NCBI GenBank assembly: GCA_963727505.1
Contig: CAVSGP010000004.1
Coordinates: 864,001-928,000 of the forward strand
Direction: 5' to 3'
DNA: 64,000 nt
From: an uncultured Trueperaceae bacterium
GTDB lineage: Bacteria; Deinococcota; Deinococci; Deinococcales; Trueperaceae
Made by a program: the position numbers and the translations under genes. Below are positions 60,364 to 63,800 of the stretch, piece by piece (within the stretch, counting starts at the first letter, position 1; each line of letters opens with the position of its first letter). The notes beneath the pieces were generated by a model that ran no database searches, was not told the origin of the DNA, and worked only from the letters and a program-made list of their open reading frames with translations.

Positions 60364-60563
60364 GAGGACCTCCTTCCGAGCGACACGCCCACCTTACACC
60401 CCGGCCCGTGCGCGCTTCCGGGGCCCGGGGACCGGCTCCGGGTCGCGTGCGGTGCCTCGTGGTACACTTTCGCTTGCGTTTCGAACCGGAGAAGGATCCG
60501 TGTCACGGCACGTTGAATCGTGGCCCGATCCCTGCGGAACCACGACTTGACCCTGGAGGCAAG

Positions 60564-62669
<2,106 letters not shown>

Positions 62670-62925
62670 CGCAGCGGCCCGTACGGGCCTCGACGCACGT
62701 TCTTCCCGCGGGGTGGCGCACGGCGCCGCCCCGCGGCTCGCTTGCGCGTCAACGCGCGACGCCACCCTCGCGCCGTTCGGGCCCGTGTTGTCGAAGGGAA
62801 GGTCGTTCTTTGAGGGGGCGCCCGTCGCCTCGTGCGGCCCAACTTTCCAATTATAGCGCAAGCCCGGTCCGCGCACTAGGACCCGGGACCCCGAGTGGTC
62901 TGCCGGACCGGACTATCATCGCATT

Positions 62926-63304
62926 GGAAGGAGGTCTAAACCATAGAGGCCAAAGACCACTTCTCGAAGAGCAACCCTCGGCCCACTAGAGGCTCGACCG
63001 AGTAACTCCTCAAGCGGAGGAGCACCGACAGAGCAGGAATAGGCGATCGAGGGTTGCTCTCATGTGAACTCCGCTGCAGCCTGCGGCCCCACCCAGGATG
63101 GGTGCGGGCCTTTCGCATGCCGCAAGGCCCCACCCGAGCCCGTCCGGTACGGCTAGACCGGAACCTTCGAAACGCCCGTGCTGAATCGCGATGGGCAGAT
63201 CGCGAACCCACGAACAAAGCCCCCTTGGCTGACGCCGGCCTCGTGGACAGCGCCTTTGGGGGCTTGATGCGAGGAGCCGGCGCCGTTGCGACGGCGGCTC
63301 CTCG
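62926..63304 (+). ncRNA. Large structured ncRNA candidate (6S/Ms1-like)
   Basis: TATCAT -10 at 62914-62919; 13-bp perfect stem 62968-62980/63048-63060 and at least six further hairpins; no credible ORF. The 3' end is uncertain (63114 or 63304). Confidence 0.55.
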
Positions 63305-63563
63305 ATCCGATGTCCTTGTACCACTTCCGGGGCAACGCTCGATCGCCGTTCGTTGCGCGATCACCCTTCGTCGGCGCGGACCGAACGGCGCCATGGACAT
63401 TCGTCCTTGCCGGGTCGCATCGCCCCCTGTTACAACTCCGATGTGAGGGTCCGACATCCCCGGTCGCGACCCCTCGGAACTGCTACGCTGGAGTCAGGCA
63501 CACCGTCTGGCACACCGCGCGAAAGGCGGCGCGCGCTTCGGTGCGGCCCGGAGAGGAAGCTCG

Positions 63564-63800
63564 ATGGCATACGTGATCGCTGAGCCCTGCATTGGCGTCA
63601 AGGACGCGTCCTGCGTGGACGTCTGCCCTGTGGAATGCATCTACGAAGCCGAAGACCAGTTCTACATCCATCCAGAGGAGTGCATCGACTGCGGTGCCTG
63701 CGTCCCCGCCTGCCCGGTCGACGCGATCTTCCCCGAGATCGACGTGCCCGATGAGTGGGCGTCGTTCACCGAGAAGAACGCCAAGCTCTCCGGCCTGTAA
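63564..63800 (+). CDS. fdx: 7Fe ([3Fe-4S][4Fe-4S]) ferredoxin
   Basis: EPCIGVKDASCVDVCPVECI and CIDCGACVPACP; RBS GGAGAGGA. Confidence 0.95.
   Translation: MAYVIAEPCIGVKDASCVDVCPVECIYEAEDQFYIHPEECIDCGACVPACPVDAIFPEIDVPDEWASFTEKNAKLSGL

Follow-up and report, generated by a model that had tools for sequence, protein, structure and literature searches.

What is encoded in the gap between hppA, the gene for a membrane H+-pyrophosphatase, and a ferredoxin gene in the genome of an uncultured Trueperaceae bacterium? The gap lies in a 64,000-nt stretch of DNA (referred to as the window), which corresponds to positions 864,001 to 928,000 of contig CAVSGP010000004.1 (assembly GCA_963727505.1). It measures 894 bp from the hppA stop (62669) to the ferredoxin start (63564), close to the ~900 bp given in the original prediction, which had placed here one large structured non-coding RNA (62914..63304) resembling the RNA polymerase-binding Ms1/6S-type RNAs of Actinobacteria. 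Our analysis points to a different and shorter element. The gap very probably contains a stand-alone structured small RNA (sRNA) gene that represents a new family, restricted to the Trueperaceae within the range of our searches, and its conserved core comprises 143 nt on the + strand (62923..63065).

Distribution, covariation and fold of the RNA

The core is recognized by our covariance model R1 with 169.1 bits (E 5.7e-38), and its 5' end is predicted at ~62926. When the region 62860-63330 was compared with 40 relatives by blastn, the core was recovered in 9/9 congeners and in 5 of the 15 genomes representing other genera of the family, and in none of the 16 genomes from four other families of the order. 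Model R1 found the RNA in 109 of 128 Trueperaceae genomes (65 of the 79 high-quality ones), distributed over 29 of 36 genera; the family tallies include the unpublished genome G118, which has an hppA match and no RNA match and contributes to no other statement. A total of 113 R1 matches were obtained, 112 of them full length and usually one per genome. A search with the filters off detected a diverged copy in G133 (40.3 bits), located after its hppA. A second model, R2, which was built from 47 sequences, identified the RNA in all but one of 12 family genomes; in three other families of Deinococcota, represented by 82, 48 and 8 genomes, it found none (138 in total; stricter filters apply at this search size). 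In addition, a search of 185,579 species genomes with a 23-letter core pattern gave 33 matching loci. Wherever the titles of these loci name a taxon, it is Trueperaceae, Truepera, Deinococcaceae, Deinococcales or Deinococci, the others being labelled "uncultured bacterium"; the host is thus outside Actinobacteria, as had been proposed. A mobile or viral origin was also considered and rejected, the same pattern giving 0 matches in viral contigs.

Two copies of the RNA are present in four genomes, and they stand in tandem directly after hppA in G131 (C13:1659684-1660198) and G137 (C32:17735-18245). The two dispersed copies in G086 (C1) share near-identical 90-nt upstream stretches, and one of them is beside an IS3-type transposase gene. 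In G119, the two copies are on two contigs.

Base pairing within the RNA is supported by two alignments. RNAalifold, applied to a plain MAFFT alignment of 15 homologs, predicted 40 pairs forming the elements P1-P4, and 15 of these pairs show double (compensatory) changes. In a separate, model-fitted alignment of 47 sequences, 90.5% of the cells are standard pairs, compared to 36.8-49.0% after the partners have been shifted by 1-3 columns, and in 35 of the 40 pairs both positions have changed. None of 500 shuffles matched the alignment on any of five measures. Such covariation support is as strong as that in curated Rfam families, and the RNA could enter Rfam as it stands. A structured, conserved non-coding RNA at this locus, the most general part of the original prediction, is therefore well founded, and the covarying homologs on whose existence it depended are plentiful. 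The RNA of this genome also folds better than expected: the 193-nt region 62923-63115 beats its shuffles with a z of -3.90 (0/200 as good), and the 391-nt span of the original prediction does so with a z of -3.72 (0/100 as good). The opposite strand was examined as a candidate RNA and folds even better (z -5.53), but G-U pairs, which are frequent (e.g., GU:24 at pair 4/73), and the conserved motifs assign the RNA to the + strand.

The RNA is predicted to begin with the 5' hairpin P1 (62926..62964), which appears in both consensus and single-sequence folds and consists of the helices GGAAG/CUUCU and GGUCU/AGACC with AUAGA in the loop. Double changes were observed in all 10 pairs of these two helices, with 91.3% and 89.9% of cells paired. 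P1 is followed by a rod composed of P2, P3 and P4. The arms of P2 (62968..62980 and 63048..63060) form the perfect 13-bp stem that had already been noticed in the sequence; alignment, consensus fold and covariation all support this helix, in which 11/11 model pairs have double changes and 94.1% of cells are paired. Downstream of the 5' arm is the near-invariant block CCACUAGAGGCUCGACCGAGUAAC (62983..63006), which was recognized by its invariant alignment columns and provides the 5' side of an internal loop as well as the 5' strands of P3 (62992-62995) and P3b. This block is kept in genera spanning 43% to 65% GC. P4 (63006..63022) is a covarying hairpin of variable length that shows compensatory changes and insertions of up to ~60 nt; in the present genome it is the CTCCTC (63006-63011)/GAGGAG (63017-63022) pair reported earlier within the 13-bp stem, i.e., CUCCUC/GAGGAG in the RNA. 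The second conserved block in the alignment, CACCGACAGAGCAGGAAUAGGCGAU (63023..63047), contributes the 3' sides of P3b and P3 (63031-63034) and a purine-rich internal loop. In the alignment of 15 homologs, the near-invariant blocks read CCACUAGAGGCUCGACCGAGUAAC and GCACCGACnGAGCAGGAAnAGGCGA, with a variable paired hairpin between them. The 5' and 3' ends of the RNA are unpaired with each other in consensus and single-sequence folds, so that a separate P1 precedes a rod of only ~95 nt.

UAGAGG was found twice in similar contexts, as CCAUAGAGGC in the P1 loop and as CACUAGAGGC in the internal loop (62926-62949 and 62985-62993). Together with GGAGG, this makes three purine motifs similar to the Shine-Dalgarno (SD) sequence, which could be repeated sites for one factor.

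Transcript ends and flanking sequences

The 391-nt span had been proposed as a single RNA. Homology divides it into two pieces, ~62910-63115 and 63208-63324, which are ~4 kb apart in five of the nine congeners (G002, G005, G006, G007 and G009). The insert between them begins after the GC hairpin 63085-63115 and contains the genes of a LonC-like protease (AAA_32, LonC_helical, Lon_C; ~810 aa) and a universal stress protein (Usp). G000 (the genome studied here), G003 and G004 are without this insert, and the contig of G008 stops soon after the RNA; lonC-usp is an insertion/deletion polymorphism inside the genus. The intervening spacer (63116..63207, + strand), which bears two small hairpins, aligns only with G004 and is outside the conserved RNA. 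Considering both the two-piece homology and the restricted conservation of the spacer, the conserved RNA stops at 63065, or at the latest at 63115, and not at 63304. The hairpins listed in the original prediction do exist, namely a GC hairpin (63085-63110) with TTTCG after it, and others near 63143-63162, 63186-63205, 63217-63265 and 63270-63304, and the low GC content is also real (0.55 for the conserved core vs 0.699 for the genome). The last two hairpins occupy a genus-conserved segment (63208..63324, + strand) and belong to the upstream region of the ferredoxin gene; they lie outside the RNA because they are ~4 kb away from it in five congeners and continuous with this upstream region.

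The predicted promoter of the sRNA is marked by a -10 box, TATCAT (62914..62919, + strand), which had been noticed earlier and was confirmed by comparative analysis. All 46 homologs have a TAnnnT 7-19 nt before GGAGG, and the distance is 10-11 nt in 38 cases. Its first, second and sixth letters (T, A and T) are kept and the inner ones vary freely (TATCAT, TACCGT, TAGCAT, TATAGT), which argues for a -10 box rather than an RNA motif. Scanning with a sigma-70 consensus yielded 0 promoter-like sites, since there is no -35 box, and the only terminator-like site reported is on the minus strand inside P1/P2.

A second hexamer, TATAAT (62850..62855, minus strand), occupies a conserved position and may be the -10 element of a divergent promoter: in 38/46 homologs, a TAnnnT on the opposite strand precedes the -10 box of the sRNA by exactly 64-65 bp. 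In this genome, that second promoter arm points antisense into the 3' end of hppA. Upstream alignments revealed a conserved block, CYAGGAC...GnCCCTA (62876..62893, unstranded), that separates the two -10-like boxes and is placed ~42 bp from each of the predicted starts; it forms a dyad in many genera and is a possible regulator site. The midway dyad reads TAGGAC-N5-GnCCTA-like. The pair of boxes and the dyad look like a bidirectional, regulator-dependent promoter, and by analogy with the geometry of class II activators they suggest a dimeric regulator serving two divergent promoters. The upstream 110 nt were also considered as part of the RNA, and this was rejected, as RNAalifold finds no consensus structure in them (26 sequences).

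At the other end, the GC hairpin and the following UUUCG (63085..63115, + strand) constitute a likely terminator in this genus, as judged from a covarying hairpin located 20-40 nt past P2 in the congeners. A U-tract was observed directly 3' of P2 in 17/47 homologs, the present genome not being among them, and in those homologs the rod itself is therefore the presumed terminator. The RNA would thus end right after P2 in many genera and at the GC hairpin in this genus, with a putative transcript start at ~62926. With a predicted promoter and terminator of its own, the RNA gene is independent of its varying flanking genes. A 238-nt contig of the metatranscriptomic run X19 covers 62935-63121 with 8 differences at a depth of 2.3, from a library that may hold DNA; RNA runs X18 and X20 cover the ferredoxin side only, and uncovered parts were given no weight as evidence.

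Both genes that flank the gap were verified with Pfam. The 5' neighbour, hppA (60561..62669, + strand), has an inferred start (MDGLII) and a PF03030 match at G000:C4:924600-926627, i.e., 60600-62627 of the window. The ferredoxin gene (63564..63800, + strand) encodes 78 aa with a PF00037 (Fer4) domain (E 3.6e-12). Four open reading frames of 173, 130, 104 and 59 aa that overlap the gap match no Pfam family and were discarded as spurious. Ahead of the ferredoxin gene, the region 63217-63560 shows high conservation within the genus and contains two long hairpins. The promoter-like boxes TTGCCG-N17-TGTTACAACT and TGCTACGCT (TGnTAnnnT-like) occur after these ferredoxin-side hairpins, and a small hairpin, GAUGU...ACAUC, is present in the ferredoxin leader.

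The 5' hairpin, the link to hppA and a possible mode of action

The 5' strand of P1 begins with GGAAGGAGGU (62926..62935, + strand), a 10-nt complement, with one G-U pair, of the 3' tail of the organism's own 16S rRNA; the 16S end ...GGAUCACCUCCUUUCU was located in contig C9, and the tail reads ...CACCUCCUUUCU. GGAGG or GGGGG is present in 46/47 homologs. An AUH triplet follows GGAGG by 5-10 nt in 46/46 homologs and is always AUA (30), AUC (14) or AUU (2). In 37/46 it is part of AUHGA (AUH GAN), so that variation in these two initial codons is limited to the third letter of each. A canonical start codon (AUG, GUG or UUG) is found nearby in one homolog and in none of the other 45. In the present RNA, AUA opens a frame of 20 codons (62943..63005, + strand) whose UAA is inside the invariant block; we consider it a pseudo-initiation site with a mini-frame and not a protein gene. 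Judged from these sequence features, contact between P1 and the ribosome is likely.

We tentatively favor, at slightly less than an even chance, a trans-acting, factor-binding RNA with a 5' hairpin that docks the 30S subunit. According to this proposal, the rod P2-P3-P4 would keep the geometry of the two near-invariant internal-loop blocks fixed, and these blocks would be bound by a protein or other macromolecule encoded elsewhere and not adjacent to the RNA, which would act in trans by binding this factor. P1 would serve as a pseudo-initiation site, in which a complement of the 16S tail is followed by AUA, AUC or AUU and canonical starts are avoided, and would dock the 30S subunit without productive translation. 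It is known from Gram-positive mRNAs that an SD look-alike near the 5' end without a start codon (STAB-SD) protects transcripts in organisms with RNase J. The present genome encodes RNase J (TIGR00649, 536.6 bits vs a cut-off of 400), and by analogy a docked 30S subunit may shield the 5' end of the RNA.

The same initiation-like arrangement could mean that the RNA is, at least in part, a gene for a small protein, i.e., that a peptide of 11-21 residues is translated from AUH in a small-protein gene or a dual-function RNA. The strong SD with ideal spacing and the third-letter variation in AUH GAN speak for this, as does GC content, which is highest at third codon positions (0.73 vs 0.56 and 0.49 at the first two, in the high-GC group). 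The frame is open for 11-21 codons in 45/46 homologs, and in the remaining one (L060) it runs for 41 codons without a stop in the match. However, its openness says little because the +2 frame is likewise open for at least 11 codons in 38/46. With L060 set aside, the stop codon is the UAA/UAG of GAGUAA in 18 homologs and the UAG/UAA of CACUAG in 17; in the other 10, the frame ends within 15 nt of the block. The GAGUAA and CACUAG stops are out of frame with each other, so that homologous nucleotides are read in different frames across genera and there is no conserved peptide. Variable sites are distributed 4:8:6 over the three codon positions in 11 close sequences, with no third-position excess, and these same nucleotides show covariation in support of RNA pairing. 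Considering the near-complete lack of canonical starts, the unkept frame and this distribution of variable sites, a conserved peptide is unlikely, and a small-protein or dual-function gene is in our view highly improbable.

Translation could also matter without a conserved product. The SD and AUH may be a real, weak initiation site that toggles the transcript between a terminated sRNA and a read-through or remodelled RNA: a ribosome on the 11-21-codon frame would enter the 5' arm of P2, stop in the invariant loop and melt the rod, the presumed terminator in many genera, and initiation conditions would decide, for example initiation factor 3 (IF3), which rejects AUH starts, as in the autoregulation of infC. 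This would agree with the SD-AUH spacing and the choice of triplet, with the positions of the stops, with a frame of at least 11 codons in 46/46, with AUH-to-P1 stem distances of mostly 17 or 20 nt and with the U-tract directly after P2 in 17/47 homologs. Moreover, same-strand genes follow the RNA in the genera g1 (lonC-usp or ferredoxin) and g12 (ferredoxin). Nevertheless, we regard such a switch as unlikely. Downstream genes are not conserved and are often on the other strand, the loop blocks are conserved far beyond what a terminator needs, and the open +2 frame, the differing frames without a conserved peptide and the 4:8:6 distribution count against it as they do against a protein gene.

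A related possibility is an RNA that is read by ribosomes without being a gene, with P1 as a conserved decoy initiation site (a perfect SD with AUA, AUC or AUU at the spacing of a start codon) and 30S occupancy, dependent on IF3 or initiation fidelity, deciding whether the rod, with its invariant binding module, folds. We give this only a small chance of being correct. If true, the RNA would be a free-standing sensor of the translation-initiation state of the cell, and we know of no such sensor class described outside the infC mRNA itself.

The genomic neighbourhood bears on whether the RNA acts in cis. The genes 3' of it differ among genomes and include ferredoxin, lonC-usp and ClpB genes and, on the other strand, genes for GH94, MPG glycosylase, sigma-70 and BrkB proteins. 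As the downstream genes differ and are often on the other strand, the RNA is not a cis-regulatory element or leader; neither a constant same-strand gene downstream nor an Rfam riboswitch match was found.

The upstream side is more constant. hppA is within 6 kb of 82/113 copies; 59 copies are at most 700 nt downstream of it on the same strand, 10 more are 0.7-6 kb downstream, and within 700 nt nine copies are divergent and four convergent to hppA. Among the others, seven copies are more than 6 kb away from hppA, and 24 have no hppA on their (often short) contig. In the Thermus and Deinococcus genomes searched, neither hppA nor the RNA was found. Together with the opposite-strand -10-like box that aims at hppA in 38/46 homologs, this pattern raises the possibility that the RNA is tied to hppA, either as a 3'-UTR-derived or co-regulated element, as a sensor of a ligand from pyrophosphate or ion metabolism, or as part of a bidirectional control region that also fires towards hppA. 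Truepera (g43), however, has the RNA in 4/6 genomes and hppA in 0/6, the three genomes of genus g30 have hppA (3/3) and no RNA (0/3), the upstream module accompanies the RNA to loci without hppA, and a terminator hairpin of hppA stands between hppA and the RNA promoter. The tie between the RNA and hppA is real but not obligatory, and the probability that it defines what the RNA does seems very small to us.

Classical base pairing with target mRNAs would suit a stand-alone, single-copy sRNA gene with its own promoter and terminator, and an unpaired conserved stretch, such as CCACUAGAG or the purine-rich loop, could be the mRNA seed. A genome-wide search revealed no complementarity longer than 15 nt (best E-value 0.46), and in six genomes the duplex with the hppA leader was no better than those of shuffles. 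Furthermore, conservation on both sides of the internal loop is more like a folded binding site than a linear seed. We therefore see a classical base-pairing sRNA as improbable. The hppA leader (60440-60560 and homologs) is itself conserved across genera. It follows an extended -10 box, TGGTACACT, in this genome, begins with CGCTTGCGTTTCGAACC and ends in CTGGAGGCAAGATG, and it may be a structured 5' UTR.

Several observations weigh against the factor-binding, 30S-docking RNA that we favor. The binding partner is hypothetical, and factor binding itself is something that we infer. The SD-like strand is paired within P1, so that docking requires opening of the hairpin, and the AUH frame, which is open for at least 11 codons in 46/46 homologs and has a high third-position GC content, leaves translation possible. 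The sole expression evidence is the low-depth X19 contig, which may reflect DNA carry-over and whose depth is too low for ends to be placed. The RNA is missing from some members of the family, namely genus g30 (0/3), G125 and G011, all three also negative in a search with the filters off, and the complete genome G138. Finally, a generic trans-acting role leaves the linkage of 82/113 copies to hppA, in three orientations, unexplained. Taken as a whole, a new sRNA gene with the proposed action is the best explanation that we can offer, and we consider it about evenly balanced between right and wrong.

Relationship to known RNA families and regulatory systems

No match to Rfam 15 was obtained in the whole window at gathering thresholds. 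With the threshold relaxed to E<=10, the gap yielded chance-level hits only, i.e., mir-4854, sul1, mir-9279 and two Pyrobaculum snoRNAs; the sul1 hit has 19 bits against a cut-off of 36.2 and is located upstream of the RNA. When 12 homologous loci were scanned (E<=5), no family fell on the RNA, and the seven matches elsewhere in these loci (5_ureB_sRNA, ALIL and five at chance level) are unrelated to it. The 5_ureB_sRNA match (L072:4302-4597, minus strand, G016; 84.7 bits, cut-off 40) is antisense in the urease alpha/beta region, and its occurrence in Trueperaceae is far from the original host group of that family. SRP RNA was found elsewhere in the genome.

The two families named in the original prediction were searched for in the whole genome. 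Nothing was found with the Ms1 model (RF02566; 304 positions and a cut-off of 162 bits) at E<=10 or with 6S (RF00013, cut-off 46.4 bits) at E<=1, and in the gap 6S gave nothing at E<=10 either. The ordered-motif likeness to Ms1/MTS2823 that had been proposed was not reproduced by any model search, and the label was not upheld: Ms1 is about twice as long as this RNA, the ends of which are unpaired. As an RNA polymerase-binding RNA, it would fit a genome in which no 6S is detectable and the role may be vacant, and it is single copy and family-wide with a large, helix-flanked internal loop in its rod. The 6S model is also silent in Thermus and Deinococcus control genomes; its silence therefore proves little either way, and the model may not reach this phylum. 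On the other hand, no family matched even in permissive scans, the 5' end forms a separate hairpin, the rod is only ~95 nt long, and none of 138 other Deinococcota genomes has a match. Hence, we think it very unlikely that the RNA is a 6S- or Ms1-like one.

Two further candidates that act by binding proteins were rejected. A CsrB/RsmZ-type sponge for CsrA is contradicted by the genome (97.4% complete), in which PF02599 was not found at E<=0.001, and a bacterial Y RNA by the unpaired ends and by the Ro60/TROVE domain (PF05731), which was not found. With the genes for CsrA and Ro60 absent, the two best-known protein-sponge models are removed.

To our knowledge, characterized regulatory RNAs are few in Deinococcota, and full-text literature searches, judged at the level of search results, turned up no described Trueperaceae sRNA. 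The RNA combines three unusual and directly testable features, i.e., a ribosome-binding-site look-alike with a non-canonical triplet, a two-block rod, and a fixed-geometry promoter with an opposite -10-like box. Taken together, these features open the way either to a new RNA-protein partnership or to a new form of coupling between an sRNA and the ribosome, for which the persistent linkage to the H+-pyrophosphatase gene provides a physiological starting point.

Comparison with known systems helps to place these features. Like 6S RNA, the Trueperaceae RNA is a single-copy, stand-alone RNA of ~150-190 nt, forms a rod with a large internal loop, and is lineage-wide in a host that shows no 6S of its own. 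It differs in having no model match and no closing stem, an additional 5' hairpin that carries an SD look-alike, a rod of about half the 6S length, near-invariant loop letters, and a distribution restricted to one family. The analogy with Ms1/MTS2823 drawn in the original prediction holds insofar as both are structured, stand-alone sRNAs of lineages in which no 6S was detected, whereas the phyla are different, the RF02566 model has 304 positions compared to the 143 nt of the conserved unit here (~190 nt at most if the terminator is counted), and there is no match between them.

The 5' hairpin invites comparison with three systems in which ribosomes or ribosome-binding sites play a regulatory role. 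In the trp- and his-type leader-peptide attenuators, a conserved downstream operon, a run of regulatory codons and an alternative antiterminator are present, and the Trueperaceae RNA, whose loops are near-invariant, is without all three; nevertheless, it shares with them a short frame that enters the 5' arm of a hairpin and, in 17/47 homologs, a U-tract after it. Compared to STAB-SD elements (e.g., that of cryIIIA), the Trueperaceae element is placed inside a hairpin of a non-coding RNA and has a conserved AUH at a fixed spacing, and a stabilizing effect is only predicted; the two have in common an SD look-alike near the 5' end, no canonical start after it, and a host with RNase J. Unlike infC, whose AUU start mediates autoregulation by IF3, the RNA has no attached IF3 gene, and the product of its 11-21-codon frame is not conserved, but both place AUA, AUC or AUU after a strong SD and avoid canonical starts.

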